Source of the DNA: Rhodothermales bacterium | GTDB taxonomy: Bacteria > Bacteroidota > Rhodothermia > Rhodothermales > JANQRZ01 | DNA: 64,000 bases | Assembly: GCA_965214485.1 (NCBI GenBank) | Contig: CBDCBW010000015.1 | Span: forward strand, 338,000 to 401,999 | Direction of reading: 5' to 3' | Shown: one piece after another, positions 34,501 to 57,714 of the stretch | How positions within the stretch are numbered: position 1 is the first letter of the stretch | Layout of the letters: the number at the start of each line of letters is the position of its first letter | Position numbers and translations under genes: made by a program | The notes under the pieces: model-generated | The model's input: the letters and a program-made list of their open reading frames with translations, nothing else | The model's database searches: none | What the model was told of the DNA's origin: nothing

Positions 34501-34591
34501 GGGGCAGGGGTTGGGTGAGCAACCGGAGCGGAGAAACGGGCAACGTCCACCCGTGAGAGGCGGCGCTGGAGGGGAACCCCTCAACGGGGGA

Positions 34592-41012: not shown

Positions 41013-41039
41013 TAGCGACCCCACACCCCCCAATGCGTA

Positions 41040-41125: not shown

Positions 41126-41405
41126 ACCCCCCAGCCCAGTCCGATCCCACGGCATCACGATGCGAAGTACGCAAGGCCCGCGACCAGGAAGCAGAACAAC
41201 CACTGACCGAGCACCAAGTAGCGGCGCTCTACGCCTCGCCCGACCACGGACACCGTAGCGAACCAAGCCAACCCGCACAAAGCGAAGTAGGCGCTGAGTA
41301 TGAGGAGGATGGACGGCTCCTCTGGGACTACGTCCGTGAACCCGATTAAGAGAAAGAGGAGGGCGGCAGCGAGCAAGCTGACCAAAACCCAATGCCAACC
41401 ACTCA

Positions 41406-42259: not shown

Positions 42260-42423
42260 TCAGCGCCTGAACCCATGCCGTCCGAGGTTTCCCCGCGTCG
42301 GGGTTGGGAGCGAATTCCTGGAACTCCCGCGCTCCGACGACGGCGTGAGCGCCGAAGGCGAGGAGGGTGAGGGTACCGGCGATGACGGCGAGGACATTCA
42401 TTCCTCAGTTAAAGGTTTCAAGG

Positions 42424-42553
42424 CCGTATACCAAAGGGCCGCTCACCCACGCGGGGAAAACAGGATGATGGTCGGACGAAGCTGCGGAAGCGGTGGAGTT
42501 CGGACGAGGCAAGACCGTGTAGCCCTTCGTCGGCGTGCAGCGGCGGGTTAGGC
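42424..42553 (-). repeat. attC-like site A1
   Basis: Left box degenerate (GTATACC). Inner arms GGGCCGCTCACCC / GTGCAGCGGCGG. Right box GTTAGGC. Confidence 0.65.
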
Positions 42554-42561
42554 AGCCGTGG

Positions 42562-43179: not shown

Positions 43180-43235
43180 GTCGGTAGGGCCTCGTTTGGT
43201 TATGATACGGTGGAGTTGGCTACGCTGTCACGGGG

Positions 43236-43366
43236 CCGCCTAACAGATTGCCACTCAGCCGCGAAGGGCTGACGGCACGGTGGTAGAACGGAGCGAAAGT
43301 AGCGCCGACGCTCAGGCGAGCCGAGAACGCTGACGCCCTTCGTCGGCTTGCGGCGGCGGGTTATGC
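43236..43366 (-). repeat. attC-like site A2
   Basis: Plus-strand boxes GCCTAAC ... GTTATGC. Arms TGCCACTCAGCC / TGCGGCGGCGG. Confidence 0.75.
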
Positions 43367-43684
43367 CGCAACGATATACGAGCGGCCCGGACGTACCGAC
43401 GGCAAGAGCGCGTTCAACTTCGGTAGTAGCGGTTCGAGGTCTGCCAGGTCTGAACTCGGCGCTCGGACGACGATTACCGCGAGGTCGAGTGCTGCCACGT
43501 TCTGTTGGTACTGCAAGTTGGAGTCGAGCGTCACGAAGACGTCGAACTCTGCCGCTGCGGCTCGAAGCAACTCCCCGTTCTTCTTCCCGCTCCATCCTCG
43601 GTACTTCACCGTCACGACGTCGTGGGCTGCGTCGAAGCCTCGCCGGAGCCGCCAGTCGAGGTTCTCATCCAGGAGCACCCGCAT
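43361..43684 (-). CDS. DUF5615-type PIN-like toxin; cassette 11
   Basis: 107 aa (MRVLLDENLDWRLRRGF...). Paralog of 44856..45176. Its TAA stop lies inside the GCATAAC box of A2. Confidence 0.7.
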   Translation of the reverse strand: MRVLLDENLDWRLRRGFDAAHDVVTVKYRGWSGKKNGELLRAAAAEFDVFVTLDSNLQYQQNVAALDLAVIVVRAPSSDLADLEPLLPKLNALLPSVRPGRSYIVAA

Positions 43685-43702
43685 CAGGCAGGAGCACTCG
43701 CA

Positions 43703-43915
43703 TCAGGTGGTCGCGAGGACGGCGTCCTTCGCCAACGCCAGAAATGCAACCGCCTGCTCACGGCTGACGCTGGGAAACCCTTCTAAGAAGTAATCGAGCG
43801 GTCGGCCTGCCGCGAGATAGTCGAGGAGGTTCTGAACGGGGACGCGCGTGCCTTGAAAGACAGGCGTGCCTCCCAAGATGTCGGGGTCGGAATGGTAAAC
43901 TTGGTGCCTTTCCAT
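43703..43915 (-). CDS. DUF433-type antitoxin; cassette 11
   Basis: 70 aa from ATG 43915 (MERHQVYHSDPDILGGTPVFQGTRVPVQNLLDYL). The ILGG.PVF.GTRVP motif is typical of DUF433. Confidence 0.75.
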   Translation of the reverse strand: MERHQVYHSDPDILGGTPVFQGTRVPVQNLLDYLAAGRPLDYFLEGFPSVSREQAVAFLALAKDAVLATT

Positions 43916-44002
43916 CGGGTCTACGTGGCTGGCGGGTCTACGTGGCTGTTCGGAGAATCGAACGCCTTCTGCCACCTTTCCGATCCAGCACCGGCGCAGT
44001 TG

Positions 44003-44122
44003 CGGCATAACAGGGGGCCGCTCAGCCGCACAGCGCGGCGATTGAACGAGACAAAGTAGGTGGCAAGGTTCGGACGAGGCAAGACGGCGGAGCGCCGTGT
44101 CGGCCTGCAGCGGCGGTTATAC
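44003..44122 (-). repeat. attC-like site A3
   Basis: Boxes GCATAAC ... GTTATAC. Arms GGCCGCTCAGCC / CTGCAGCGGCG. Confidence 0.75.
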
Positions 44123-44130
44123 AGCCGGGG

Positions 44131-44724
44131 CTACATGCCGTCCTGATCCAGCCGGTACGCGAACACCCCGTTCATCTCACAGATGAAGGCGACGTACCGC
44201 TCGTCCGGCGAGAGCGTCAGGCTGTGACAGTTCTCAAACCCGCTCGTCCAGAGCGTCTCCGGTTCCGCGCCGGTCCGAGTTATCACGAACGCGGTGCTCA
44301 TGCCCTCCTGGTGTAGCTCGACGGAGGTACCCCCTTTGGTACGCATGGAGCGAGGGGCAAAGTTCGCGGCCTCCTGCCAGGCAGTGGCTTCGGGTGCTTC
44401 CGCGACAGACTCGCCCGACTGGAGGGCACCGAGCGGAAGATCACCCCGCCATGTCGCCCCGACAAGGGCAAGAGAGTCGAGGCGAACCGAATACCAAATC
44501 CCGGCTACGTTCGCAGCGAGCCGTGAGCCGTCTGGCGACCAGACCGGGAACTCGTCCACAGCTTGGGAGGGGACAATCAGCGCGGTGCTCGCTCCGAGGC
44601 GGGTGAGTTCAGCATCGAGGGATTGAAGAGTGTAGGAGGTGTCAGGCGGTGCATCAGCCTCCTTCTCTTGCGCAAAGGATGGGCTGGCAGCCAAGAGCAG
44701 TAGAGGGAGAACGAGTCTGTACAT
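44131..44724 (-). CDS. Secreted protein with PD40-like motifs; cassette 10
   Basis: 197 aa from ATG 44724 (MYRLVLPLLLLAASPSFAQ signal peptide). Motifs WSPDGSRLAA and LSPDERYVAF. The longer track ORF start would lie inside attC A4. Confidence 0.6.
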   Translation of the reverse strand: MYRLVLPLLLLAASPSFAQEKEADAPPDTSYTLQSLDAELTRLGASTALIVPSQAVDEFPVWSPDGSRLAANVAGIWYSVRLDSLALVGATWRGDLPLGALQSGESVAEAPEATAWQEAANFAPRSMRTKGGTSVELHQEGMSTAFVITRTGAEPETLWTSGFENCHSLTLSPDERYVAFICEMNGVFAYRLDQDGM

Positions 44725-44730
44725 TGGGAG

Positions 44731-44861
44731 GCTGTATAGCAGAGGGCTGCTCATCCGCCTAGGGCAAGCAGCACGAGGGTGGAACGAGGCAGTGTAAGCG
44801 GCGCAGGTTGCACGAGGCAAGACCGTGCAGCCCTTCGTCCGCCTGCAGCGGCGGGTTATAA
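44731..44861 (-). repeat. attC-like site A4
   Basis: Left box degenerate (GTATAGC), right box GTTATAA. Arms GGGCTGCTCATCC / CTGCAGCGGCGG. Confidence 0.65.
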
Positions 44862-45176
44862 TGCCACGCGGATTACGCGCCCCGGAGCCGCCTCCTGCAA
44901 CGCTGCGTTGATCGACGCCACCAACGGGAGCAGGTCATCGATGTCGTTGCTCACGGCCGAGAGCACGATCAGACACAGCTCGATCCCCGTCAGGTTCTGC
45001 TGATACTCGATCCCCCGGTCTATCGTCAGCAGCACGTCGAACTCCAAGGCCGCCAGCCGGAGCAGTGGGCCGTTCTTGATGCCGCCCCACCCACGCTCGG
45101 GCACCGTCAGCGCCTCCGCCTCCAGCGAGCACTTCAGCTTGCGCGGCAGGTTCTCGTCGAGCAGGACCCGGATCAC
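44856..45176 (-). CDS. DUF5615-type PIN-like toxin; cassette 9
   Basis: 106 aa. GTG start overlaps the antitoxin stop (GTGA). Sequence IRVLLDENLPRKLK. Its TAA stop lies inside the TTATAAC box of A4. Confidence 0.7.
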   Translation of the reverse strand: MIRVLLDENLPRKLKCSLEAEALTVPERGWGGIKNGPLLRLAALEFDVLLTIDRGIEYQQNLTGIELCLIVLSAVSNDIDDLLPLVASINAALQEAAPGRVIRVAL

Positions 45177-45385
45177 GCCTCAGCCACCAACTCCTGCTCA
45201 GCCAACTCGAGCAAGGCTTCGGCCTGCTCCCGGCTGACCGTGGGGAAATCGTCACGGAAGTCCTCGATCCGCTTCCCCTTGCGGAGGTAGACGAGCAGCG
45301 TGTCAATAGGCACGCGGGTGCCGGTGAAGACCGGCGTGCCGCCGAGGATTTCGGGATCGGAGTGGTAAACGTCAGTGCGCTTCAT
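45173..45385 (-). CDS. DUF433-type antitoxin; cassette 9
   Basis: 70 aa (MKRTDVYHSDPEILGGTPVFTGTRVPIDTLLVYL). Confidence 0.75.
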   Translation of the reverse strand: MKRTDVYHSDPEILGGTPVFTGTRVPIDTLLVYLRKGKRIEDFRDDFPTVSREQAEALLELAEQELVAEA

Positions 45386-45465
45386 CGCTTCGGCTCATAT
45401 CGTTTCAGGTTGCTCGCCTGACTTCAAACGCCCCTGCTCCCGTTCGGATTCAGCGCGTCGGGAGT

Positions 45466-45598
45466 GGCCGTATAACAGATGGCCGCTCACCCGCGCAGGG
45501 CAAGCAGCACGATGGTCGGACGAAGCTACGGAAACGCAGACGTTCGGACGAGCCGAAAACGCTCGCGCCCTGCGTCGGCGTGCAGCGGCGGGTTATGT
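45466..45598 (-). repeat. attC-like site A5
   Basis: Boxes GTATAAC ... GTTATGT. Arms GGCCGCTCACCC / GTGCAGCGGCGG. The IS481-like element is inserted about 17 nt beyond its right box. Confidence 0.8.
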
Positions 45599-45680
45599 GC
45601 ACGGGCGGTACAGACCGGGCTGATGGTTTACACAATAGTCCAGGCACATGGTTTACACGGACACCCTTCCGTGAGTTGCC

Positions 45681-46878
45681 ATGCCCTTCCAGACTACCGA
45701 CCCGCCTATGGAGCGCGCCCGCCTCGTCGCCGCTCACCTCGACGGCCTCTACTCTGTCGCCGAACTCGCCGACCGCTTCTCGGTCTCCCGGCCCACCGTT
45801 TCTCGGTCTCCCGGCCCACCGTTTCTCGGTCTCCCGGCCCACCGTCTACAAGTGGATCGAGCGATACGCTGAGGGTGGCACCGAGGCGCTCCTCGACCGT
45901 AGCCGAGCCCGACATACCCAGCACGCTAAGACCGACCCGGAGGCGGAGCGCCTGCTCATTGAGGCCCGGCGGGCGCACCCCACCTGGGGCGCACGCAAGC
46001 TGCTGCCCTACCTCGCCCGGCGGCACGAGGGCGTCCGCTGGCCTGCGCCGTCTACGGCAGCGGCCATCCTCCAGCGCCACGGGCTGACGAAGACGCGCCG
46101 CAAGCGCCGGGTGCCGAAGCACCCCGGCTCCGCCCCGCTGGTGACGACGGCCCCCAACGAGGTCTGGACGGCCGACTTCAAAGGCCAGTTCAAGACCCGC
46201 GACGGGGTGTACTGCTACCCGCTGACGGTCTGCGACGCCCACTCGCGCTTTGTGCTCGGCTGCACCGGCCTGCCATCGGTCAAGCAGAAGGGCGCGAAGG
46301 ATCAGTTCGAGCGCCTGTTCCAGAAGTACGGCCTGCCCGAGGCGATCCGTAGCGACAACGGCGTACCGTTCGCCACGCAGGCGCTCTGCGGCCTGAGTCG
46401 GCTGAACGTGTGGGGGCTCAAGCTCGGAATCGGGCACGACCGGATCGCACCAGGGCAGCCTCAACAGAACGGACGCCACGAGCGGATGCACAAGACCCTG
46501 AAGGCCGAGACGGCACGACCACCCGAGCGTGAGATGGCACGGCAGCAGGTGCGCTTCGACGGCTGGCGCACGGAGTTCAACGACGAGCGCCCGCACGAGG
46601 CCCTCAGCTATGAGACTCCCGCTTCACTCTACGTGGCCTCGCCCCGCGCAATGCCCGACGTGCTCCCGAAGCCGGAGTACCCCGGCCACTTCGAGGTGCG
46701 CTGGCTCTCGAAGAGCGGCAACATCAAGTGGAAGCGGCAGCAGCTCTTCGTCAGTCAGGCGCTGGCGCACGAGTGGGTCGGGCTCGAGGAAGTCGCCGAC
46801 GGGGTGTGGAGCTTGTACTTCTACGACCGGCTGTTGGCGCGGCTTGACGAGCGCTCGGGGCTAAGGCTTCGGCCGTGA
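45681..46878 (+). pseudogene. IS481-family transposase (HTH + rve integrase core), frameshifted by a 23-bp tandem triplication
   Basis: MPFQTTDPPMERARLVAAHLDGLYSVAELADRFSVSRPTV (frame of 45681) continues as YKWIERYAEGGTEALLDRSR... only in the +1 frame after 45844. The core contains WTADF...D...RSDNGVPF...E. Confidence 0.8.
45776..45844 (+). repeat. Perfect 23-bp tandem repeat x3 (TTCTCGGTCTCCCGGCCCACCGT) inside the transposase gene
   Basis: Read directly at 45776-45798, 45799-45821 and 45822-45844. Two extra units add 46 bp, which shifts the frame by +1. Confidence 0.95.
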
Positions 46879-46935
46879 GGGGTGTAAACGATGTGGTCAG
46901 ACAAAACTGTAAAGGAACTGACCGGCTCCTACAGG

Positions 46936-47769
46936 TCAGACTTCGTACAGATCGTGGAGGAGTTGTATGGTGTCCCGTGCGAACTCTCGGGCCTCAGACT
47001 TCGATACAGTTCGGTTCCCGTGTACGATGCGGCTCAGGTCAGCGTAGAGATCGCTGATCGGCCCCCGGAATTTCTTGAAGTGATTGCTCCTGTCCAACAG
47101 CGCCCGGAGGTCGGCAGGTTGCATCTGATAATCCTCAGGAATGCGGAAACTCCGGTTCTGCTCTCGCGCTTTTCGCTCGTAGTACGACTTGGTGATGCCG
47201 TAATTCTGGTGCTCAGGGTCGAAGAAGCCTTCGAGTTGACACAGGTGGCGCAGCGCAATCTCAATCACCGTTCGGCAAAGGACGCAAACGGCGAGGTACT
47301 GCTCGAAGGCGTAGCACTGCCGCATCTCCTGCAAGAAGGAGCCGAACTCGGTGGGGGTGTCGTCAGCGCGAGCTACAAGCGCGCCCACTTCCAACATGCC
47401 GGAGACGTATTCGTAGTGGCTGTACCACGGGAAGAAGTGCTCCTCCGCAAGCTCGTCCAACTCGTCGAAGGTGTGCTCGTCATCGAAGAGGTCTGAGAGT
47501 GGAGTGTCCGAGACTACCTCTTCCAGAGGGAGCTTCTTGCCGAGCACGATCCTCTGGACGGTCGCTCGCACATCCCGCGACGCATCATCGGGCAGGAGCG
47601 CAGCCGGTGAATCGAGGAAGTGCTGTTTGATCGAGCGCTTGATCTGACCGTGCTCCTCGACCAGCGCACCGAGCGGCTTGAAGTCCTTCTTGTCGAACGC
47701 CAGAGACAGTGCGTCCGGGAACTCCTGCTCAATCTGCCGGAGGCGTTCGATCTGCTCAGCGAAGTCCAT
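46936..47769 (-). CDS. Hypothetical protein with a DUF4145/HEPN-like C-terminal region; cassette 8
   Basis: 277 aa. The helical C-terminus (CRTVIEIALRHLC ... LYADLSRIVHGNRTVSKSEAREF) is reminiscent of DUF4145/Abi-type HEPN. This is a recall-level assignment only. Confidence 0.5.
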   Translation of the reverse strand: MDFAEQIERLRQIEQEFPDALSLAFDKKDFKPLGALVEEHGQIKRSIKQHFLDSPAALLPDDASRDVRATVQRIVLGKKLPLEEVVSDTPLSDLFDDEHTFDELDELAEEHFFPWYSHYEYVSGMLEVGALVARADDTPTEFGSFLQEMRQCYAFEQYLAVCVLCRTVIEIALRHLCQLEGFFDPEHQNYGITKSYYERKAREQNRSFRIPEDYQMQPADLRALLDRSNHFKKFRGPISDLYADLSRIVHGNRTVSKSEAREFARDTIQLLHDLYEV

Positions 47770-47791
47770 CAGTGGGCACGGTGGGAAGGAA

Positions 47792-47914
47792 GCATAACAG
47801 GTTGCGCTTCAGCCGCGCCGGAACGCGACCGTGGAGTGGAAAGCTACGATGAGTGCTAGCACACCGACGGCAAAACCGCACAGCCCGGCGTCGGTCTGCA
47901 AGCGCGGGTTATAC
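47792..47914 (-). repeat. attC-like site A6 (divergent arms)
   Basis: Boxes GCATAAC ... GTTATAC. Arms GTTGCGCTTCAGCC / GGTCTGCAAGCGCGG still pair, so the structure is conserved rather than the sequence. Confidence 0.7.
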
Positions 47915-48472
47915 CGCCGGGCTTGGCAGTTTTTGTATAGCAAGACCTCGTCCTGATACCCAATCAACGTATTCCCCCCATCCCCCCACTTGAAATACAA
48001 CCTCCACTTGGTCCATTCTCGATAGGTAATTAAGCACGTTCCGATGTTCCGGCTTGTCAGCGAAGCGGATAGACATCCTCGTCACGGACCAAGGAATTCG
48101 AGAGGAATCCTGGTGGTAGATAGCAGATAGCTTCACCTCACCAGCAAAGGTGCTGATGTCATCAACAACCATCTTCGCGGCGGTAACAGGATTAGAAAGG
48201 TCGCAATTATCGCCTGTCAGCGGGTAATCATTCGCCCGAATTGAAGTCATACTGGAATGCCTCTCAGATATGTCGAGTAGTTCTTGCAGCAGTTCAGGAG
48301 CAGGTCGAAAATCATTGCCAGTGGAGATCGTCAAGGCAACCAACCGATCCTTCTCCCTTTGTTGAATGTCCTTCAGTCGTTTGGTTTCGGAGCGCGCCTT
48401 CCGAGTCGCTAACGCTTGCAGATAAAAGGCTAACGCTATACTGGCAACTAAAATAGTTAGGAAAAAGAGCAT
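47909..48472 (-). CDS. Membrane-anchored orphan protein; cassette 7
   Basis: 187 aa. N-terminal TM helix MLFFLTILVASIALAFYLQAL. Lower-GC sequence. Its TAA stop lies inside the GTATAAC box of A6. Confidence 0.6.
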   Translation of the reverse strand: MLFFLTILVASIALAFYLQALATRKARSETKRLKDIQQREKDRLVALTISTGNDFRPAPELLQELLDISERHSSMTSIRANDYPLTGDNCDLSNPVTAAKMVVDDISTFAGEVKLSAIYHQDSSRIPWSVTRMSIRFADKPEHRNVLNYLSRMDQVEVVFQVGGWGEYVDWVSGRGLAIQKLPSPAV

Positions 48473-48487
48473 AGATCAGGACGCGAG

Positions 48488-48619
48488 GCGGTATAACAGA
48501 CGGCCGCTCACCCACGCAGGGCAAGCAGCACAATGGTTGGACGGGGCAACGTAGACACCGATGCTCGGACGAGCCCAGAACGCTTGCGCCCTGCGTCGGC
48601 GTGCAGCGGCGGGTTATAC
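48488..48619 (-). repeat. attC-like site A7
   Basis: Boxes GTATAAC ... GTTATAC. Arms GGCCGCTCACCC / GTGCAGCGGCGG. A second stem is CGCAGGGCAAGC / GCTTGCGCCCTGCG. Confidence 0.8.
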
Positions 48620-48674
48620 AGAATCATTCTTGGTACCTCTGTTCAGGCTAAATAATATTTGATATTTAAGGCTT

Positions 48675-49727
48675 CTAAAATAGCGTAGTCTGCTCAACTG
48701 ACACTTCTGTTTCCGTTGCGCCGTCACCCGAAATAGCCGGGTCAAGCTCATCAAAGCGGAACCGGGAGCTTTCGAGGTACTCTTCCTCAAGCTCGAAGGC
48801 GAGGTAACGGCGGCCCATTTCCTGCGCCACCTCGCCGGTCGTGTTGCTCCCGGCGAAGGGATCAAGCACGAGATTACCTTCTTCAGTAGTAAGGCCGATG
48901 ATGAACTCGGGGAGCGCCTTCGGGAAGCGGGCAGGATGCCGCTTGGCTCCGGTCTCGCGGCACCGCCGCTGATAGCGGTCGTTGCTGGACGTGTTCGACG
49001 CCGCTACGACATTGACGGGGACGGGTTCACCGATCTCGTGCTCAAAGGCGTCATCCTCTAGGATGTTTGGCGGAATCGCGCCGCCGTTGTTCTTTCCGAA
49101 CTTGTCTGAGATGTCGTGTTCGCTCGGGCGGAGCTTCGGCGTGTAGCCGTTCTTCATCAGGTGCTTCTGCGCCTTGCTGTAAGGCTTCAGCACACTCCGG
49201 TTCGTCACTTTCCCGTCCTTCTCATCAACGACGGCAGAGGGGCGAAGCCACCAAACGGTGTTGACTGCATCCTTGACACGGATGCGGCGGACGGTCACCC
49301 ACTCGGCAGGCGTCGGCAGCTTGGCCGGATTGTACCAGTAGAGTTCTTGCGCGAGGAAGAAACCGAACTCCCCGCCTTCCTCGACTGGCTTGCACAGCCG
49401 AAGCAGAAACTCGTAATGGTAGAGGCTGCGATACGGTAGCCCTTTGATCCACGTACCGCCTAAGTCAATGACGAGCGAACCGTCGGGTTTAAGGATGCGC
49501 TTGAACTGCTCTGCAAAGGGTCTAAACCACTCGACGTACTTCTCAGACGTGACGTTGCCGTAGCCTTTCTGTCGGAGTAGCGCAAACGGCGGCGACGTGC
49601 AGATGAGGTCCACGGACTCATCGCCAAGCTGCTTCATCAGTTCCACGCTGTCGCCGAGGTAGGCCGCGCCAGCTTCCGTGGTGTAGTAAGGCTGGGCGTC
49701 GCCGAGGGTTGGGAGCGGCATGGGCAC
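48675..49727 (-). CDS. Beta-class DNA methyltransferase (N4-cytosine or N6-adenine); cassette 6
   Basis: 350 aa. Motif IV TSPPF lies near the N-terminus and motif I DPFAGSNTTG near the C-terminus. The first ATG is at 49721; the track start at 49727 is GTG. Confidence 0.85.
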   Translation of the reverse strand: MPMPLPTLGDAQPYYTTEAGAAYLGDSVELMKQLGDESVDLICTSPPFALLRQKGYGNVTSEKYVEWFRPFAEQFKRILKPDGSLVIDLGGTWIKGLPYRSLYHYEFLLRLCKPVEEGGEFGFFLAQELYWYNPAKLPTPAEWVTVRRIRVKDAVNTVWWLRPSAVVDEKDGKVTNRSVLKPYSKAQKHLMKNGYTPKLRPSEHDISDKFGKNNGGAIPPNILEDDAFEHEIGEPVPVNVVAASNTSSNDRYQRRCRETGAKRHPARFPKALPEFIIGLTTEEGNLVLDPFAGSNTTGEVAQEMGRRYLAFELEEEYLESSRFRFDELDPAISGDGATETEVSVEQTTLF

Positions 49728-49756
49728 CTCTTTAGATTGATTGCGCGATGGAAAGG

Positions 49757-49882
49757 CTTGACAACGTCAAGCGGGGAGCGCTACGTTAACGGCAATTTAT
49801 GCGCTCGCGCCAAAGGGTAGGGCATCTACCTTCGGGCCGAGCGCGCTGAACCATACTACGACAACGCCTTGACTAAGTCAAG
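49757..49882. promoter_or_regulatory. Divergent R-M control region with two copies of the palindrome CTTGAC-n3-GTCAAG
   Basis: CTTGACAACGTCAAG at 49757-49771 and CTTGACTAAGTCAAG at 49868-49882. The second copy overlaps the putative TTG start of the HTH gene. Confidence 0.6.
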
Positions 49883-50111
49883 CAGTTTTTCGCCAGAGGA
49901 CTTCAAGCCGGACGATTGGGTTTCGCAATCGGAGGCAGCGGACATCCGCGGCGTCTCTCGACAGGCGATCCACCAACTCGTGCAGAAGGGCCGGTTCCGC
50001 ACCTACGCTGTGGCCGGACGGACGCTCGTGCTACGGGAGGATGTGGTACAGTACGAACCGGACAAGGGAGGGCGTCCGCCCACCTCGGACGAGACCGAAC
50101 AAGGGGCATAG
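49869..50111 (+). CDS. Small HTH DNA-binding protein (excisionase/MerR-like HTH; candidate controller of the R-M unit); cassette 6
   Basis: 80 aa. WVSQSEAADIRGVSRQAIHQLVQKGRF reads as an HTH. The only in-frame start is TTG at 49869. Confidence 0.55.
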   Translation: MTKSSSFSPEDFKPDDWVSQSEAADIRGVSRQAIHQLVQKGRFRTYAVAGRTLVLREDVVQYEPDKGGRPPTSDETEQGA

Positions 50112-50112
50112 C

Positions 50113-51567
50113 GTGGCATCTGCAAAGAAGGAGAGCCAAATCCCCGTCGGCACGGGCTTCAGCCCCGATCTCGTGAGCCTGCCAGACTACGTTCGCGCCG
50201 CCGTTCGGCACAGCGGGGATTTGGACGCGCTGGAAGAAGCGCTCAACACACCGCCCGTCTGGATCGGCAAGAAGCTGAGGACGACGCGGCGCACCCGCCG
50301 CCACCCGATGGAAGCGGGGGCGCAGTACGGACTGCTCACGCCGGGGAGCTACGAAGCAACCGACCTCACGCGAAAGCTCGCCCGGCTGAGCGAGGACGAT
50401 TTGTACCAAGCGTTTGCGCGGCACATCGTTCTGAACGTCGGTGGTCTCCGTGTCGTGGAGGGAGCGCAGGAGATGCATCTTGACGGGCGGAAGGTCACCG
50501 GCGACTCGCTCGCGCAGTACCTCTCGGATCAGGGCTTCCGGGTCAGCGTCCACAACACCGCGATCAACACGATGCGGATGTGGCTGGCGAAAGCAAAGCT
50601 GTTCCCCGAAAGCGGGCGTGGGGCAGGAGCATGGCGACCGGACCCGGCGGTAAAGGAGCAACTTGTGGGGATGGACGACGATGCTATCGCGGCGCTGGCA
50701 GCATTGACGCCCGAACAGGTCGCGTTTGCTAAAACGCTCGCTCGCCTCGACCCGGACGACTGGACACCGGCGGCAGAGGTACGGGACCTTGCCGAAGCCG
50801 CTGAGGGCGTGCGGATTGGTCGCGGCTCGTTGCCGAACGAAGTGCTCCGTCCATTGGAGGCAGCGGGGCTGATCGAGTACCGAACGGGCGGCACCAGCAG
50901 CGGGAAGACTTCGGAGTTGAGAACGACGGAGGCGTTTCGGGCCGAGGTGCTGGAGCCGTTTCTGGAGCGGACGCTGAAAGACCTCGACCCGGCACTGACG
51001 GCCTACTACCGCACCCGGCCCGCCGACATTTACACTGCTCTCGGCTCGAAGGACAAGCACGAAAAGGGGCAGGCGCTTGAAGCGTTCGCCGTGATGGTGA
51101 TGCGTCTGCTCGGACTCCGGTTCGTCGGCTGGCGGCGGCGGGCCGAGGAAACCGGATACAGCGAAGTGGACGTGCTGATGGCCGGGCTGTTTGGGGCGGT
51201 GCCTACGACGTGGCAGGTGCAGTGCAAAAACACGCCGTCGGGACAGGTCCGCTTGGAGGATGTAGCGAAGGAAGTCGGGCTGATCCCGCTTATGCGGGCA
51301 ACGCACATCCTCGTGCTGGCAAACGCGCCGTTCACCCGCGATGCCCGGCGCTACGCCGACGCGATCATGCAGAACTCGTCGGTTACGGTTTTTCTGCTGG
51401 ACCGGACGGACTTCGAAGCAATTCGGGAGAGTCCCGCTAACCTGGGTCGCATTCTTCAGGCACAGGCCGAGCGCATCCGCGATCTCAAGATGGCAACGCC
51501 GGTATGGCGAGAAGGCGATGCACGCGGGGGACCGGATCAACCCTCGCTCGGTCTACCGCTGGGCTGA
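50113..51567 (+). CDS. Restriction endonuclease-like protein with a C-terminal Mrr-type PD-(D/E)xK domain; cassette 6
   Basis: Likely GTG start at 50113, just after the HTH gene stop. The C-terminus (GYSEVDVLMAG...WQVQCKNTPSGQV) fits the Mrr_cat D...(E/Q)xK pattern. Its stop abuts attC A8. Confidence 0.65.
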   Translation: MASAKKESQIPVGTGFSPDLVSLPDYVRAAVRHSGDLDALEEALNTPPVWIGKKLRTTRRTRRHPMEAGAQYGLLTPGSYEATDLTRKLARLSEDDLYQAFARHIVLNVGGLRVVEGAQEMHLDGRKVTGDSLAQYLSDQGFRVSVHNTAINTMRMWLAKAKLFPESGRGAGAWRPDPAVKEQLVGMDDDAIAALAALTPEQVAFAKTLARLDPDDWTPAAEVRDLAEAAEGVRIGRGSLPNEVLRPLEAAGLIEYRTGGTSSGKTSELRTTEAFRAEVLEPFLERTLKDLDPALTAYYRTRPADIYTALGSKDKHEKGQALEAFAVMVMRLLGLRFVGWRRRAEETGYSEVDVLMAGLFGAVPTTWQVQCKNTPSGQVRLEDVAKEVGLIPLMRATHILVLANAPFTRDARRYADAIMQNSSVTVFLLDRTDFEAIRESPANLGRILQAQAERIRDLKMATPVWREGDARGGPDQPSLGLPLG

Positions 51568-51568
51568 T

Positions 51569-51695
51569 TCTGTATAACAGAGGGCCGCTCACCCGCAGAG
51601 GGCCGCGCGGCGGTGGGACGAGGCAACGTAGACGCCGAGGTTCGGACGAGGCAAGACCGTGCAGCCCTTCGTCGGCGTGCAGCGGCGGGTTAGGC
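51569..51695 (-). repeat. attC-like site A8
   Basis: Boxes GTATAAC ... GTTAGGC. Arms GGGCCGCTCACCC / GTGCAGCGGCGG. Confidence 0.8.
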
Positions 51696-51713
51696 AGAAT
51701 GCGGGCAGTGGAG

Positions 51714-53066
51714 TTAGTTCAGAGTTGCCCTCAGCGAAGGGAAGAAGGCTGAAACCGGATTGTCTACAGAGTCCGGATCGTCAAGAGCTTTCCGGACCTG
51801 GCTGGCGATCTCAGACTTGTACACCTCAAGCCTTGGCACCAGTGCAAAGATGCTCGAGGTATCAATCTGAATCGTCCTCACTTGATTGAGGTCGAACGGA
51901 ATGTGGTCTGCTGCCCGCATGATCTGGACAGTCGGCAGACGACAGGCGTGCCTCAAGGCCAACTCGTAGAATACGTTGGGGTTATGATAAGACAGATCTG
52001 CGATGACTAACTTTGACTTGAGGATGTACTCGATGATCTGGGCCGTGATGATACCAGGCTCCGCGATATAGTCCGCACGCACCAGCTTCAGTCCAAACGG
52101 CTCCAAGGCGGGCTCGATAATAGAGCCCATGAAGAGATCTGAGTGCTGACGCTGCTCCGATTCCTCATCACCTATCGGCGTGATGTAGAAACAAATATGA
52201 TCGAAGTCAGCGCTTGAACTGGCGGGTTTGGCGCGACCTGTCGCAACTACTCCGTCAGGGGCCGGGCGTCCACCCCGGCTTGGGGCACGAACGGCGCGCT
52301 CCAGTCCTTCAAGGGCGTGGTCGAACGTCAAGAGGCGTTCAGCACCTGAAAGAGTTCTGAGAAGGCCCAGATACCGAGCGTTGACGATGAATATGTCAAC
52401 GCACTCGTTCGATCTCTGCTCTGACATACCGGTCTCACGTAACGCGTCGCGCAAAAGAGAACTCGACGGCATTCGTGAGCCTGCAAATGTCTCATAAAGC
52501 AACTTGAACGGCTCGACACCCATTATCCCAAGCTCAATCCGAGCCTTAGTCCGCTCGTGCTCGGACACGTCGTCGCTGGTCGCCTTGTCACCTTCGGGAG
52601 TCAACTGAAGATGCTCCGCTTTATGACTCCCCTTCACAAGACCGTACTTGCTCGCGTTCGTGAGAAGCTGCCGACTCTGACTACTCTCAGGAGACTTGCC
52701 GAACTCATCGAACAAGGTGAGACGACGGACCTGGTTGCTTCCTGCAGTCTCTTGGATGAACTGCGCAAAGCTCACGACCTCCTCAAAGGAGGCATTAGGG
52801 TAGGGTAGCGGCGTTCGCTGTCTGGGCTTCTTTGCGGCAGGCTTCTTCTTATCAGCAGGCTTCTTCTTCCGTGTCGTCTTCTTCCCAGCATTGGCCTTTG
52901 GCTTCCGGCTGGCGGGTTTCTTAGCCGTAGCCTTTTGAGCCGACTCCGCCTTCTTCGCTGGCTCCGCTGCCTCAGTTGACTGTTCGCCCTCCGACATGGG
53001 CTCGGCGTCAGAGGACTTCGACTCTGATTCCCCGAAGAGGTTGGTGCCATTCGCTCCTACTTCCAT
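51714..53066 (-). CDS. Three-part protein: Lys/Pro/Ala-rich basic tail, two winged-helix-like repeats, and a C-terminal nucleoside 2-deoxyribosyltransferase/TIR-like domain; cassette 5
   Basis: 450 aa. Basic tail KKPASRKPKANAGKKTTRKKKPADKKKPAAKKPRQR. C-terminus CFYITPIGDEESEQ...VRADYI...LVIADLSYHNPNVFYELALRHA matches the NDT-like pattern (recall-level). Confidence 0.6.
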   Translation of the reverse strand: MEVGANGTNLFGESESKSSDAEPMSEGEQSTEAAEPAKKAESAQKATAKKPASRKPKANAGKKTTRKKKPADKKKPAAKKPRQRTPLPYPNASFEEVVSFAQFIQETAGSNQVRRLTLFDEFGKSPESSQSRQLLTNASKYGLVKGSHKAEHLQLTPEGDKATSDDVSEHERTKARIELGIMGVEPFKLLYETFAGSRMPSSSLLRDALRETGMSEQRSNECVDIFIVNARYLGLLRTLSGAERLLTFDHALEGLERAVRAPSRGGRPAPDGVVATGRAKPASSSADFDHICFYITPIGDEESEQRQHSDLFMGSIIEPALEPFGLKLVRADYIAEPGIITAQIIEYILKSKLVIADLSYHNPNVFYELALRHACRLPTVQIMRAADHIPFDLNQVRTIQIDTSSIFALVPRLEVYKSEIASQVRKALDDPDSVDNPVSAFFPSLRATLN

Positions 53067-53131
53067 TGGACTAACCGGTCTGTTTCAAGAGCCTGAACAA
53101 GTTCGCGTAGAAGATACTCGGTCGGGGCATT

Positions 53132-53261
53132 CTGCCTAACAGAGGGCCGCTCACCCGCAGAGGGCCGCGACCAGGATGGACTCGAAGATATGACGGCGTG
53201 GGCGCTCGACCGCAGGCAAGACGACCGAGGCCCTATGTCGGCGTGCAGCGGCGGGTTAGCA
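53132..53261 (-). repeat. attC-like site A9
   Basis: Boxes GCCTAAC ... GTTAGCA. Arms GGGCCGCTCACCC / GTGCAGCGGCGG. Confidence 0.8.
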
Positions 53262-53628
53262 CGCAGGCGTTGAGGGCACACCGTTGGAACTGCGAAGCTT
53301 ACCCCCCTCCTACCTACGACGCGGGTCCGCCCGCCTCGGTGAGACTCTGGACACGGCTGCGTAGCGGCGGTGACCGCACTCGCTCTGGATTGGGTGCCCG
53401 GCTGTGGGGGCCGAGCAGACGGAGGAACTGCGACGCCGAGCTCGCACGGCTGGCAGAACCTCCCGCGACGCTGGTAGGCACCCACGAGCACACGCTCACC
53501 CGAGGCCGCCTCTGCCGGGCCGTGGAGGCGAGCACGGGCCACTCGGTCCACAAGAACACCGAGGCTGGCAAGGGCGCGAGTGGTTCCGCCTTGCAAGGAA
53601 ACGGACTCCGCCCCACGACGAGGGCCTG

Positions 53629-53759
53629 CGTGCTAACAGAGGGCCGCTCACCCGCGCAGGGCAAACAGCACAATGGTCGAACGAAGCTACGGAAGCGCAG
53701 GCGTTCGGACGAGCCGAGAACGCTCACGCCCTGCGTCGGCGTGCAGCGGCGGGTTAGCC
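53629..53759 (-). repeat. attC-like site A10
   Basis: Boxes TGCTAAC ... GTTAGCC. Arms GGGCCGCTCACCC / GTGCAGCGGCGG. Confidence 0.8.
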
Positions 53760-54569
53760 GGACCCGTGGGGCACGGCAGTTGGGGACAGCATCTCTTGAA
53801 CCTCCTCAATCGTGTACGGTGGAGACTTCCGGTGGATTACGGCGTGGCAGTTCGGACAGACTGGACGGAGGTCGTCTACCGGATCTACCTCGTACCGCTC
53901 GCCCAACTCTGACACCGGGCGGAGGTGATGGACGTGGATGAAGCCCTCGGTGGCGGCACCGTAGGCACGGGCGAAGTCGAACCCGCAGACGATGCACGCA
54001 ACGCCGTAGTAGGCAAGGCACCGCCGCCGTGCCTCCGGGTTGCGCTCGTACACGTTGAGGCTGACGGCGCGCGGGGTGCCCTCGTACAGCGGGCGCGGCT
54101 CAGCGCTCCGGTTAGAATCCGGCGGGGAGGCCGAGCCGATGACGGAACCCCACTCCCGTTCCAGCGCTTCCGCAACGTGAGGCGGGATCGAGGTACCCGA
54201 CGCCTGGGTGTTCCAGTAGACGTCAGCGAACTCGGGCGCGTCCAGCCGCTCGCGCGGGAGGATCGGATCAGTCTCGGGATCTTGCAGCGCGTCGAACTCC
54301 ACTTCGACGAACCAGCCTGGCGTGTCGCGCTCCGGGTCCCAATGATCGTCTTGGTACGACGGCGTTGTGACGGAGCCGCTGGCGATGATCCCGCGTGGTT
54401 CGAGACCCTGGCGGAGCAAGAAAACGCGGTCGCCCTGCTCGATCCGTTTCGTGTTTCCGCAACTCCAACGACGGACCAATCGCCCGCGCTCGGCAACCTC
54501 GTTTGCGTCGGCGGCGAGGCCGTCCCACTTCCACCGCTTCGGGTTCCACGTCAGGAGATACGTCGCCAT
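53754..54569 (-). CDS. PUA-like (EVE/ASCH-type) domain fused to an HNH nuclease (candidate modification-dependent restriction enzyme); cassette 3
   Basis: 271 aa. N-terminus YLLTWNPKRWKW...GDRVFLLRQG..GIIASG. C-terminal HNH CIVCGFDF...FIHVHHLRPV...CPNCHAVIH. Its TAA stop lies inside the GGCTAAC box of A10. Confidence 0.75.
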   Translation of the reverse strand: MATYLLTWNPKRWKWDGLAADANEVAERGRLVRRWSCGNTKRIEQGDRVFLLRQGLEPRGIIASGSVTTPSYQDDHWDPERDTPGWFVEVEFDALQDPETDPILPRERLDAPEFADVYWNTQASGTSIPPHVAEALEREWGSVIGSASPPDSNRSAEPRPLYEGTPRAVSLNVYERNPEARRRCLAYYGVACIVCGFDFARAYGAATEGFIHVHHLRPVSELGERYEVDPVDDLRPVCPNCHAVIHRKSPPYTIEEVQEMLSPTAVPHGSG

Positions 54570-54590
54570 AGCACAGCGATTCGGAGGGTA

Positions 54591-54720
54591 CGGCTAACAG
54601 TTGACCGCTCAGCCGCGTGGGGCAAACAGCACGGAAGTTGAACGAAGCGAAGGTAGCGCCGACGCCAGAACGAGCCGAGAACGCTCACGCCTCACGTCGG
54701 CCTGCAGCGGTGGGTTATGT
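54591..54720 (-). repeat. attC-like site A11
   Basis: Boxes GGCTAAC ... GTTATGT. Arms GACCGCTCAGCC / CTGCAGCGGTGG. Confidence 0.75.
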
Positions 54721-54745
54721 GGCGTACAGTAGATGTCCACTCATT

Positions 54746-55441
54746 CTAATGTCCGAACCGATACGAACCTAGGTCGATCAGGTCTAACTCCTCGATTCGA
54801 ATCGCCATCGCCTCGTAGGAGACGCCGAAGAGTTCAGCAATTGGCTTCACGGGGTTCCCGGCGAACATTCCAGCCTTTGCCAAGCGAAGAGAGAGTGGCC
54901 GCATATCGGGACTTGTAGCTAGCAGAGGTCCCAAATCTTTAATCCCGAGGGAGAATGCCGAGTCGTTGGATACGATAAACCGATCAGATCCGAAGATCGC
55001 TCGGAATGCCTCTCTCATCACGGACTCGGGCATCAAGAAGTATGCGGCGAACTTGTCGGCTTCATACTCCACTTGTGGGCGGTGGCCCCGAATCAGCGAG
55101 CCATCAAGGCCACGATCTCTGAACTGTTTGTCTGCTTTGTGGAGAATCGCATGACCAAGCTCATGCGCCGCCGTGAAAGCCTGGACCACTGGTACGAACT
55201 GCTCTGATACGGCAGCGTATCGCTTCGGTTTGTCGATGAACCCAGCCACCTCGGTTACGTCGCCACCATCGATGATCTGTCCCAAGAATGGAGCGCGCTC
55301 AAAAGTGTAGCCGAAAGCATGAAATGCGGAGGGCGGATCAAGAACATCGATGACGCCTCTGTCGGTACCGTCTGTCCATATGTCTGACCTATTTCTCCAA
55401 AGGTCGTTCTGGACGTTTTTAGCGATGGAGTGAACGACCAC
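54746..55441 (-). CDS. ImmA/IrrE-family zinc metallopeptidase; cassette 2
   Basis: 231 aa. HEXXH motif AAHELGHAILH followed by EYEADKFAAYFLMP. The GTG start is embedded in the IS200-like end hairpin, so the true N-terminus is uncertain. Confidence 0.75.
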   Translation of the reverse strand: MVVHSIAKNVQNDLWRNRSDIWTDGTDRGVIDVLDPPSAFHAFGYTFERAPFLGQIIDGGDVTEVAGFIDKPKRYAAVSEQFVPVVQAFTAAHELGHAILHKADKQFRDRGLDGSLIRGHRPQVEYEADKFAAYFLMPESVMREAFRAIFGSDRFIVSNDSAFSLGIKDLGPLLATSPDMRPLSLRLAKAGMFAGNPVKPIAELFGVSYEAMAIRIEELDLIDLGSYRFGH

Positions 55442-56020
55442 CCCCAGAGGGGGTGGCTTCTGTATTCCTCACGGCGACCCCTGAAAGGGGATCGCGCGCT
55501 CACGAGAACAGATCGTAGTTGGCCTGCTGCCGCTCCTGTTTCTTCTCCTCCTGCTCCTGATACTGAACGTAGCGCCGGATCAGATCCTCGTTCAAACCCA
55601 CCGTGTTCACAAAGTACCCTCGCGACCAGAAATGATTGCCCCAATACGGCTTCTTCCGCAGACGGGGGTAGCTCTTGAACAGCTTGATCGCCAGCTTCCC
55701 CTTCAGAAAGCCCATGAACTGCGAGACCGCCAGCTTCGGTGGGATCGAGCAGAGCAGGTGGATGTGGTCGGGCTGCACGCTTAGCTCCATCACCTCGACC
55801 TGCTTCCACGCACACAGCACCCGGATGTCGTGCTCGACGGCCTCTTTGATAGCCCCTTCGAGCACACGGTAGCGGTACTTCGGCGTCCAGACGATGTGGT
55901 AGTTGCACTGGTAGACCGTGTGCGTGAGCTTTCGATACTTCGCGTTGCGCTCTGCCATGCTGCCAGTTTACGGCATAGCCGAACACACATCACCACCGTC
56001 AAAGACGGTGGGTTGCTACG
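55440..56020 (-). mobile_element. IS200/IS605-family element (tnpA only; ends approximate) inside cassette 2
   Basis: The Y1 transposase gene is flanked by subterminal hairpins: CCACCGTCAAAGACGGTGG at 55994-56012, and GACCCCTGAAAGGGGATC and CCACCCCCAGAGGGGGTGG at 55437-55492. Confidence 0.7.
55500..55958 (-). CDS. tnpA: IS200/IS605-family Y1 transposase TnpA
   Basis: 152 aa. YHIVWTPKYRYRVL, the HUH motif (DHIHLL) and the catalytic-Tyr region WSRGYFVNTVG. Confidence 0.9.
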   Translation of the reverse strand: MAERNAKYRKLTHTVYQCNYHIVWTPKYRYRVLEGAIKEAVEHDIRVLCAWKQVEVMELSVQPDHIHLLCSIPPKLAVSQFMGFLKGKLAIKLFKSYPRLRKKPYWGNHFWSRGYFVNTVGLNEDLIRRYVQYQEQEEKKQERQQANYDLFS

Positions 56021-56769
56021 CTAAACTCAATCTCCGAGTCAGTATACTTCGAGTCGATTAGACTCTTGTCTCGAATGAGGTTGATGTCCAATCCGAAGCC
56101 GTCATTCGAAGCTTGTGCGCCAGACCTCAACTCCAAGACTCTGGTTTGCAGTTCAGTGCCGATGAGGCGAGCGCGTTCCTCCAACTTTTCCGCGCGAGCT
56201 AGCAACTCCACGATCTCGCTCTCCCCGTTGAAGCTCTTGAGGTTGAGGTACACGATCGAAATAGCGCCGGTCGCTCCAGACAGGGCGGAGTCGATAGCCA
56301 CCTCCGAGTCGCCTCGGGCAGCCTTAAACCCAATGTCGAATACGGTGACGGCGTGTTCGGCGAGCGCCAAACAGCTCTCAGCTATTTCAAGAGGAATTTC
56401 ACTGGCAACATGCAACTCATCCAAAGCCTGCTTCCCATACCTCCATCTCTGGGCGGGATCGGTCTCGGCGTTTCTTGCAAGTCGCGCCTTGATGACCTTG
56501 TCAAACTGAACTGAGTCCTCGTCGAACGCTTCCCACAGCTTGGGCTCGATGTCATTGGTGATGGACTCCTCGATACTGTTAAGCTCGGCTACGGCTTCTT
56601 CATGTTCATGGCCGCCACGTCGCTTCGAAAGATCGATGACGGTTTTCGTCAGAGCGCACGAGATCAGGCCGAGCAGCGCGGCTGCGCTACCCGAACCGGG
56701 CTTGTGCCCGCCAGCGCCGAACTTCCTCAGAAGCTCGTCTAGGGGAAGCTTTGCTAGATCGACTGCCAT
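55999..56769 (-). CDS. Cyclodeaminase/cyclohydrolase (FTCD C-terminal) family protein; cassette 2. Its C-terminus may be altered by the IS200 insertion.
   Basis: 256 aa. N-terminus LPLDELLRKFGAGGHKPGSGSAAALLGLISCALTKTVIDLS matches the FTCD_C pattern (PGGGSAAAL). The last 7 codons run into the IS end. Confidence 0.6.
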   Translation of the reverse strand: MAVDLAKLPLDELLRKFGAGGHKPGSGSAAALLGLISCALTKTVIDLSKRRGGHEHEEAVAELNSIEESITNDIEPKLWEAFDEDSVQFDKVIKARLARNAETDPAQRWRYGKQALDELHVASEIPLEIAESCLALAEHAVTVFDIGFKAARGDSEVAIDSALSGATGAISIVYLNLKSFNGESEIVELLARAEKLEERARLIGTELQTRVLELRSGAQASNDGFGLDINLIRDKSLIDSKYTDSEIEFSVATHRL

Positions 56770-56837
56770 GCCTCTCTGATCTGTGAACCTCGGGAGCTAA
56801 CGCACGCATCCGTAGCAGGTTGCCTTGTGCTCCCGCT

Positions 56838-56970
56838 AGCCACATAACAGACGGCCGCTCAACCGCGAAGGGCAAACGGCATGATGGTGAATCAGAGCGC
56901 AGGATACGCCGACGGTCGGACAACGCGAAAACGCTGACGCCCTTCGTCGGCTTGCAGCGGCGGGTTATGT
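56838..56970 (-). repeat. attC-like site A12
   Basis: Boxes ACATAAC ... GTTATGT. Arms GGCCGCTCAACC / TTGCAGCGGCGG. Confidence 0.8.
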
Positions 56971-57540
56971 GCACGGCTTGTAGCGCGCGGTGATTACGAT
57001 CTCCTGATCGAAGCGAAAACGACCGATCCCTCGGCTCCGCATCCTCATCCGCATCTCGGAGGTCAAGGGAATACCGTTTACTTGCTCGAACGTGATCTCG
57101 GACTCCACCGGCTCCATCAGGAAGCCCGCTAGTCCCGACAGCTCCGGCGAATGCACGATGACACTCTTCAACTCGGCTGGGTCCTTCTGAAACGTGAAGT
57201 CGGCCCCTGGCACCTCAGCCTCAGCCTCCGAGGGTTTCAGGCGCACCGCGCGGACCCGTAGCTCGTTCGACTGGTGGCTAGGAAGCTCGTGGCGCTTGAA
57301 CTCGTCGCCGCTCAACATGGGGAGGAGGTCTTCTTCCTCCGCGTTGGCTTCGGGATCGTCCAGCCGCTGCTCTCCTTTCTCGACCGAGGACGCAGGACCG
57401 AAAGCGCCGTGCTTGATCTGCTTGGATTCGCTGACGGCACATACGCCCCGGACGGCTTCCTGACGACGCTCGAACTGAGCGACGACTTCGGCGATGATCT
57501 GGCGGGCGCCGCCGCTCAGCAGGGTGTCAGTTTGGCTCAT
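56965..57540 (-). CDS. Orphan acidic protein; cassette 1 (junction-proximal)
   Basis: 191 aa from ATG 57540 (MSQTDTLLSGG), 10 nt after the terminal GTTATGTGCAC box. Its TAA stop lies inside the ACATAAC box of A12. Confidence 0.6.
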   Translation of the reverse strand: MSQTDTLLSGGARQIIAEVVAQFERRQEAVRGVCAVSESKQIKHGAFGPASSVEKGEQRLDDPEANAEEEDLLPMLSGDEFKRHELPSHQSNELRVRAVRLKPSEAEAEVPGADFTFQKDPAELKSVIVHSPELSGLAGFLMEPVESEITFEQVNGIPLTSEMRMRMRSRGIGRFRFDQEIVITARYKPCT

Positions 57541-57546
57541 AGGTGA

Positions 57547-57557
57547 GTGCACATAAC
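57547..57557 (-). other. Terminal cassette junction (half-site GTGCACATAAC; minus strand GTTATGTGCAC)
   Basis: Perfect 11-bp reverse complement of the right box of A12 (GTTATGTGCAC at 56964). No attC arms follow it, so this is the candidate attI-side junction of the first cassette. Confidence 0.6.
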
Positions 57558-57714
57558 CAGTGATTGAGCGGAAGCGCGCGGCATAGCGTGTGTCGGCGAA
57601 AGCCGAACCGTTCGGCATAGCATAACGCGATCTGCAAAAAGACGCAAGACTACTGCCTTTCCTCCGTGCTATGCCGACTCAGGCCCGCGCTATGCCGAAA
57701 CAAGGTCGCCCTCG

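Follow-up and report, generated by a model that had tools for sequence, protein, structure and literature searches.

In classical integrons, a linear gene cassette is delimited by the TT of one R' box (GTTRRRY) and the G of the next, and a complete attC recombination site exists only in the circular form of the cassette. Complementarity between the two ends of a cassette is long-established integron biology and not a new inference; it is classical evidence for circular units and is built into the cassette definition, and it therefore carries little weight as a discovery. Here we analyzed a 64,000-nucleotide stretch of a Rhodothermales bacterium (assembly GCA_965214485.1, contig CBDCBW010000015.1, positions 338,000 to 401,999 of the forward strand), hereafter called the window, and we consider it very probable that its region from 42.4 to 57.7 kb is a chromosomal integron cassette array, with the minus strand as the top (coding) strand, into which the cassettes entered singly as circles. 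The value of the locus is practical: it adds an integron array from a high-GC lineage that has received little study, with the limits of cassettes and attC sites defined exactly and on the right strand. According to the ACID paper (PMC2674596), the attC "belonging" to a cassette is that of its circular form, and the cassette begins with the first T of R' and ends with the G of the following R'.

An nhmmer search of the window returned 12 copies of a repeat in identical orientation, each starting with ..TAAC and ending with GTTA.. on the plus strand, as well as a lone left half-site, GTGCACATAAC, at 57547 to 57557. We interpret these copies as 12 attC sites (S1 to S12, in order of increasing coordinates; 112 to 123 nt) which go with 12 cassettes and are headed by an attI site. 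TAAC is present in 10 of the 12 left boxes, the exceptions being S1 (TACC) and S4 (TAGC), and GTTA in all 12 right boxes. The GC content is 54 to 66% inside the array segment, versus about 70% in the flanks. Every Pfam-supported gene between the repeats lies on the minus strand; for three of these genes, the stop is the TAA in the reverse complement of a right box, and several cassette genes start at or beside the reverse complement of a left box, such as the one at 43703 to 44008. Two insertion sequences (ISs) break up the array.

The established integron model would account for this layout as follows. Each cassette would formerly have been a circle bearing one complete attC, the bottom strand of which (here the plus strand of the window) is expected to fold into a hairpin where R' (5'-...TAAC) pairs with R'' (GTTA...-3') over the 4-nt core and a cassette-specific extension, giving 11 to 14 bp. 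The integron integrase would then open the AAC of the bottom strand between its second A and the C and join the cassette to attI, and the bases 5' of the cut (the extension and TAA) would come to lie at the opposite end of the linear cassette and make up the left box of the next site. In plus-strand terms, the portion of a left box that ends with TAA would belong to the low-coordinate cassette, farther from attI, while the part from C through GTTA and its extension would belong to the high-coordinate cassette, the owner of the site. The junction of an excised circle would be expected to read GTGCACATAA/C...attC, the slash marking the crossover. Because the sites would be hybrids after insertion, complementarity would be expected across the cassette.

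Such a pattern had been described by the initial annotation, which reported that the right box of a site is an extended reverse complement of the left box of the next one, while boxes within a physical site match only over TAAC and GTTA. All 14 box strings that it quoted are present in the window, and all seven pairs are exact reverse complements; the coordinates it gave are exact for the seven right boxes and off by 0 to 5 nt for the left boxes. One of these strings, GTTATGTGCAC, also occurs at 45592. We counted consecutive complementary bases outside the 4-nt TAAC and GTTA core at all 12 junctions. Right box n and left box n+1 match over 2 to 10 further bases (3, 9, 7, 2, 2, 7, 10, 10, 10, 4, 6, and 7; sum, 77), compared to 0 to 4 bases within the physical sites (0, 0, 1, 2, 1, 1, 3, 0, 1, 2, 0, and 4; sum, 15) and a mean of 0.97 for the 144 non-adjacent box pairs. 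When left boxes were permuted, a sum of 77 was reached in none of 200,000 trials. Cognate pairing holds at positions 1 to 7 past the core in 9 to 12 of the 12 junctions and falls to background level by position 11, and the reconstituted R-box stem is typically 11 bp and at most 14 bp long. In related genomes, 71 adjacent attC pairs behave in the same way, with a mean of 5.97 bases across the cassette, compared to 1.2 inside one site and 1.09 when boxes are paired at random.

Over their inner 110 nt, the sites are 60 to 93% alike, and TAAC and GTTA are common to nearly all of them, a degree of uniformity that would also suit a generic palindromic intergenic repeat (akin to repetitive extragenic palindromes [REP] or miniature inverted-repeat transposable elements [MITE]) with one consensus and no unit-specific covariation. 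This was also the outcome that the initial annotation had named as refuting its proposal. The extensions vary from unit to unit (TGCCGCAAC, TACAGCC, TACCGCC, TACAGAATCA, GGCAGAATGC, GCACGCAGGC, TGTGGC, and TGTGCAC), and they match only their own cross-cassette partner. The pairing matrix, with its low mean for non-adjacent pairs and its permutation result, thus refutes the REP/MITE-like reading, and since in related genomes the sites adjoin true integron integrases and a conserved attI, and the units travel as a cassette plus its attC (see below), we regard it as having next to no chance of being correct.

We then circularized each unit in silico and folded the rebuilt sites (ViennaRNA with DNA parameters, 10-nt flanks; values are mean minimum free energies [MFE] in kcal/mol). 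The rebuilt sites reached -37.0 on the plus strand and -34.7 on the minus strand, against -30.7 and -28.3 for the physical sites and -30.0 and -28.0 for non-cognate chimeras, a difference of about 6 kcal/mol in favor of the rebuilt sites. The proposal that each array site is a hybrid of two cassettes is thus supported by these better-folding rebuilt sites, together with the cassettes shared with other loci. The mirror-image circularization, in which the right boxes are cut, gave an equal gain (-37.6 and -35.6). Box complementarity and folding are symmetric and therefore cannot by themselves tell which box is cut or orient a cassette array, and we rejected folding as an orientation test.

This symmetry bears on an alternative in which the integron would have plus-strand cassettes, a crossover in the plus-strand GTTA right boxes, and attC sites owned on the high-coordinate side: the complementary pairs fit it equally well, and the -37.6 kcal/mol average is that of its reconstituted sites. 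Gene direction argues against it: the supported genes lie on the minus strand without exception, several having their stop in the TAA of a box. We find instead that the attC belonging to a cassette is the one at its low-coordinate end and that the crossover is TAA/C in the left boxes, because five independent lines of evidence agree, namely, the direction of the open reading frames (ORFs), the bulges of the attC hairpins, the position of intI in relatives, the half-site at attI, and the shared cassettes. The opening of the circles at G/TT, as initially proposed, stands as far as the trinucleotide is concerned, but its placement requires correction: the cut in G/TT lies on the minus strand, that is, at TAA/C of the plus-strand left boxes, whereas circularizing at the GTTA of the right boxes would attach the wrong attC to each cassette body.

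The bulges were seen in the MFE folds of all 12 sites as well as in a consensus built from 42 sites, those of the window and those of its relatives. The consensus has an 18-bp stem, with compensatory changes in 11 of the 18 pairs, and three single-base bulges on the plus-strand 3' arm; counted from the outer end, they occupy position 16 (C), position 20 (variable), and position 24 (always T). The apical region varies, and the site lengths fall inside the 57- to 141-bp range of attC sites. This bulge layout matches the pattern of extrahelical bases described for attC bottom strands (PMC5027507), so that the plus strand has bottom-strand topology, contrary to what plus-strand cassettes would require.

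The attC motif CGTCGGCNTGCAGCGGCGGGTTA was scanned across one genome per species. The motif occurs in 47 stretches, nearly all from Rhodothermales, Rubrivirga, Salinibacteraceae, or other Bacteroidota metagenome-assembled genomes (MAGs). Four of the 47 (L042, L025, L034, and L047) encode a tyrosine recombinase (IntI), and the IntI proteins of two scanned stretches score 448 and 418 bits with TIGR02249 (cutoff, 265). All four carry the attC motif upstream of where intI starts and on the same strand as that gene; the motif is therefore the bottom strand of an array diverging from intI, which again argues against plus-strand cassettes. The attC family was also observed on contigs binned to other phyla, namely, L028 (Saprospiraceae) and L008 and L017 (Chloroflexales and Acidobacteriota MAGs), which could reflect horizontal spread or binning error. 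L028, a 6.7-kb contig (CBDCDD010000002.1), carries about 11 very short cassettes of 244 to 720 bp. A search of the literature library used here found no paper on integrons in Rhodothermales.

If the units had traveled as circles, the same cassettes should be found elsewhere with identical boundaries, a check suggested by the initial annotation, and two cassettes answered it. The toxin-antitoxin cassette at 43244 to 44010 is present twice in one Rhodothermales MAG, at attI (L032) and next to a different attC (L006), both copies being 76% identical to it; the homology runs from AAC/AG of the S2 left box through S2 and the cassette body to ..GCGGCATAAC. The cassette at 44740 to 45475 recurs in L009, with homology bounded inside the AAC of the box. 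The L009 homologue has a perfect 13-bp box pair, in which the window copy has two mutated extension bases. In three different contexts, the shared cassettes thus end at AAC/...TAA/C. They bring along their low-coordinate attC, and in L032 the high-coordinate side is attI, the reverse of the arrangement expected for plus-strand cassettes.

The right-most element of the array is the lone half-site fused to attI and not a full attC, as plus-strand cassettes would have it; in view of all these observations, we consider that alternative very improbable. The attI site is as follows.

57557 to 57699, minus strand: attI, with the crossover between 57556 and 57557 (plus-strand TAA/C, minus-strand CTG/GTTA).

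It contains two direct repeats of CTATGCCG (about 57576 to 57587 and 57610 to 57621) and inverted copies of the motif at 57667 to 57679 and 57687 to 57699. The segment from 57557 to 57630 aligns with the intI-proximal attI of L025, L042, and six other loci, giving the minus-strand consensus GTGCTATGCGGAwCGGwTCCGCTTTCGCCG..CTATGCCG..CCGCTCAATCACTG/GTTA. Conservation stops after GTT, which identifies the lone half-site as the point where attI meets the first cassette. To the right of attI, the window was found to have no attC, and the 3' end of brkB/yihY begins at 57715. In L025 and L042, an inverted copy of the attI motif overlaps the intI start codon.

The 12 cassettes and their genes are listed below from attI outward; cassette 1, being closest to attI, is the latest insertion.

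56848 to 57556, minus strand: cassette 1, attC S12 (56845 to 56967), R'/R'' pair GTTATGTGCAC and GTGCACATAAC.
About 57534 to 56965, minus strand: cassette 1 ORF of unknown function, the stop being the TAA inside R''.
54598 to 56847, minus strand: cassette 2, attC S11 (54595 to 54717), R'/R'' pair GTTATGTGGC and GCCACATAAC.
55999 to 56769, about 55255 to 55986, and 54746 to 55441, minus strand: cassette 2 ORFs, namely, an FTCD_C-like protein, a protein of unknown function, and an M78 peptidase (CapP/ImmA-like).
53637 to 54597, minus strand: cassette 3, attC S10 (53634 to 53756), with 8 of 9 extension bases paired (GCCGGACCC and GCCGTACCC).
53754 to 54569, minus strand: cassette 3 ORF, an EVE and HNH nuclease with its stop at the TAA in R''.
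53140 to 53636, minus strand: cassette 4, attC S9 (53137 to 53258), small ORF of unknown function, R box of 14 bp (GTTAGCACGCAGGC).
51578 to 53139, minus strand: cassette 5, attC S8 (51575 to 51692), R box of 14 bp (GTTAGGCAGAATGC).
51714 to 53066, minus strand: cassette 5 ORF of 450 amino acids (aa), weak TIR-effector match.
48497 to 51577, minus strand: cassette 6, attC S7 (48494 to 48616), R box of 14 bp (GTTATACAGAATCA).
49903 to 51540 and 48675 to 49727, minus strand: cassette 6 ORFs, a 545-aa protein of unknown function and a type II DNA methyltransferase.
47798 to 48496, minus strand: cassette 7, attC S6 (47795 to 47911), R box of 11 bp (GTTATACCGCC).
47909 to 48472, minus strand: cassette 7 ORF of unknown function, with its stop at the TAA in R''.
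45476 to 47797, minus strand: cassette 8 (composite), attC S5 (45473 to 45595), containing an rve-type IS and a minus-strand ORF at 46936 to 47769.
44740 to 45475, minus strand: cassette 9, attC S4 (44737 to 44858), with 5 of 7 box extension bases paired.
45173 to 45385 and 44856 to 45176, minus strand: cassette 9 genes, DUF433 and DUF5615/PIN-like, a toxin-antitoxin pair.
44011 to 44739, minus strand: cassette 10, attC S3 (44008 to 44119), one ORF from 44131 upwards with a weak PD40 match.
43244 to 44010, minus strand: cassette 11, attC S2 (43241 to 43363), R box of 13 bp.
43703 to 44008 and 43361 to 43684, minus strand: cassette 11 toxin-antitoxin genes, DUF433 with its ATG within GTTATGCCGCAAC, and DUF5615/PIN-like with its stop at the TAA in R''.
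42432 to 43243, minus strand: cassette 12, attC S1 (42429 to 42550), with a flavodoxin/FMN-reductase-like ORF at 42562 to 43179.
40746 to 42431, minus strand: degraded distal part of the array, where an IS4/IS5-like element interrupts a minus-strand ORF.

Defense-type genes are abundant between 48675 and 54569, where the type II methyltransferase with its 545-aa partner, the EVE-HNH nuclease, which also has a weak type IV restriction match, and the CapP-like M78 peptidase are found. The 450-aa protein with the weak TIR-effector match is a further candidate of this type, and the array also holds the two toxin-antitoxin cassettes.

Several observations weigh against an integron array as described here. 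The initial annotation listed seven junctions; four of the other five are complementary as well, though with one or two mismatches each, but the S5-S6 junction is not, the right box of S5 (TGTGCAC) facing TGCTTCC in the left box of S6. While 11 of the 12 cassettes have complementary ends, cassette 8 is thus the only one whose ends do not match (GTTATGTGCAC against ..GGAAGCATAAC), for which a rearrangement involving the rve-type IS in that cassette is a plausible explanation. In the attC hairpin, the first extrahelical base is C where G is usual, and the internal loop is AGAGG by GG (5 by 2 nt) instead of the usual 5 to 6 nt or so per arm. No IntI was detected in the 64-kb window by tblastn with IntI1 and the IntI of L042 as queries, down to an E value of 10. 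The IntI1 query was an approximate sequence, and matches were then confirmed with NCBIfam, two of the four being scanned. Finally, catalysis by IntI at this Rhodothermales attC family is presumed from established integron knowledge.

Integrase candidates were also sought among the ORFs of the window. Those of 320 to 440 aa proved to be a phosphoribosyl pyrophosphate (PRPP) synthetase, a racemase, a beta-propeller protein, and others, and the ORFs to the right of attI were brkB/yihY and a spurious antisense ORF. The position next to attI that a TIGR02249 intI occupies in a complete integron is taken here by brkB, which abuts attI; in the related loci L042, L025, L034, and L047, an intI is found there. 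Within the 8-kb related loci, neither brkB nor peptidase C26 nor ABC-F was syntenic with intI. Rfam, which has no attC family, gave a single match at gathering threshold in the window, a tRNA; this gene (34602 to 34672, minus strand) adjoins the PRPP synthetase gene (33559 to 34584) and has no relation to the array.

Arrays that have no adjacent intI but begin with a conserved attI bearing repeated CTATGCSG motifs are found in the window and at no fewer than four related loci (L032, 3380 to 3448; L043, 6057 to 6123; L003, 4600 to 4670; and L023, 3961 to 4041). Genomes with such arrays also hold one attI-linked intI elsewhere (L042 and L025). Given this layout, one IntI per genome might act in trans on several arrays.

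The array appears to be partly decaying at present. GTT is mutated at two junctions, to GGT at S1, whose physical site has a degenerate left box, TACC (GGTA on the top strand), and to GCT at S4, where the 5' end of cassette 10, GCTATACAGCC, has lost the conserved GTT (plus-strand TAGC at 44737). At the distal end, a truncated attC fragment of 17 nt, GCGTGCAGCGGCGGGTA, lies at 40746 to 40762, directly after the ABC-F gene. Cury et al. (PMC4889954) define a cluster of attC sites lacking integron-integrases (CALIN) as two or more attC sites with no integrase nearby; the locus, whose 12 attC sites lie in a 64-kb window without intI, is thus a CALIN, though it retains attI.

These features raise the possibility that the array is a fossil, the cassettes having been brought by an integrase whose gene has since been lost, and the array now being immobile and decaying through ISs and point mutations. 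The lack of intI in the window, where attI abuts the 3' end of brkB, the two mutated GTT triplets, the two extension bases in which cassette 9 departs from its L009 homologue, and the two IS elements together with the truncated terminal attC are all in line with this reading. Against it, AAC and GTT are intact, with a good R-box complement, in 10 of the 12 junctions, attI is intact, and the relatives combine attI-headed intI-less arrays with an attI-linked intI in the same genome, which would allow for a trans-acting integrase. We therefore hold a fossil array to be a serious possibility, only somewhat short of an even chance.

Another view of the state of the array takes into account that the hybrid sites pair over only about 4 to 5 bp, the 11- to 14-bp stem existing only in the excised circle. 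With a long stem restricted to the circle, circles could be inserted far more efficiently than cassettes are excised from the array. That the locus represents a capture-and-hold variant of the integron, combining favored insertion with several attI-headed arrays served in trans, is a reading that we put forward as speculative and rather unlikely; a separate part of it is that an rve-type (IS481-like) IS appears to recognize attC and to insert at a constant distance from R''.

The mobile elements of the array are the following.

About 45605 to 46935: rve/HTH_32 (IS481-like) IS inside cassette 8, with its transposase at 45580 to 46878 on the plus strand.
41404 to 42260: IS4/IS5-like element with its transposase (DUF4096 and DDE_Tnp_1) at 41469 to 42251 on the plus strand and terminal repeats around GAGAGGCTGACTA.

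The left end of the rve-type IS lies exactly 15 nt past the G of the attC GTTA (GTTATG, 9 variable nt, and GGTACAG), in constant orientation. At least four independent copies with differing flanks keep this fixed distance, and copies are found in the window, L018 (3017 to 4312), L014 (about 7380) to L024 (700), L031 (about 6501 to 7790), and L030 (1 to about 80). This placement suggests that the element targets attC. To our knowledge, targeting of attC is a trait of the IS1111-attC group and of group IIC-attC introns, and not of DDE/rve elements. Neither a target-site duplication nor clear terminal inverted repeats were found for the rve-type IS, only an imperfect repeat of about 9 to 17 nt around CCGGGCAG. 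We rejected the idea that the element is itself a cassette, as its right end leads into unrelated cassette bodies and has no box. A degenerate 3'-end fragment of a second rve-type IS lies at 41046 to 41130 and is 81% identical over 52 nt to 46802 to 46853. Short tandem-like direct repeats occur between the ABC-F gene and the array remnant, at 40820 to 40870 and 40885 to 40915 (gattgtttatacca and gattgcttatacca, and caagtcatcccc twice).

Besides the boundaries themselves, the long R-box stem, the intI-less attI arrays, the defense-rich cassettes, and the putatively attC-targeting IS are side points of possible interest to specialists. Compared to CALINs, the locus has at least two attC sites, no nearby integrase, and signs of decay (IS insertions and mutated core triplets) in common with them, but differs in having an intact, recognizable attI at its start, in a layout that recurs without intI in related genomes. 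It resembles the Vibrio cholerae superintegron, with its V. cholerae repeats (VCR), in being a long chromosomal array with highly similar attC sites (60 to 93%) and cassettes rich in toxin-antitoxin and defense-type genes, whereas it has only 12 cassettes, an unrelated attC family, and no attI-adjacent integrase in the window. In comparison with classical cassettes, the R-box stem is longer (11 to 14 bp against the canonical 7 bp), the first bulge is C and not G, the spacer is asymmetric (5 by 2 nt), and the host is a member of the Rhodothermales with a GC content of about 70%. The locus otherwise shares with them the AAC and GTT triplets, the R and L boxes, the bottom-strand bulges at 16, 20, and 24, a length within 57 to 141 nt, ORFs directed toward attC with stops inside R'', hybrid junctions, and insertion at attI. 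Apart from the adjacent integrase, which is the only feature of a complete integron that it lacks, the locus has the attC and gene cassette features for which we tested.

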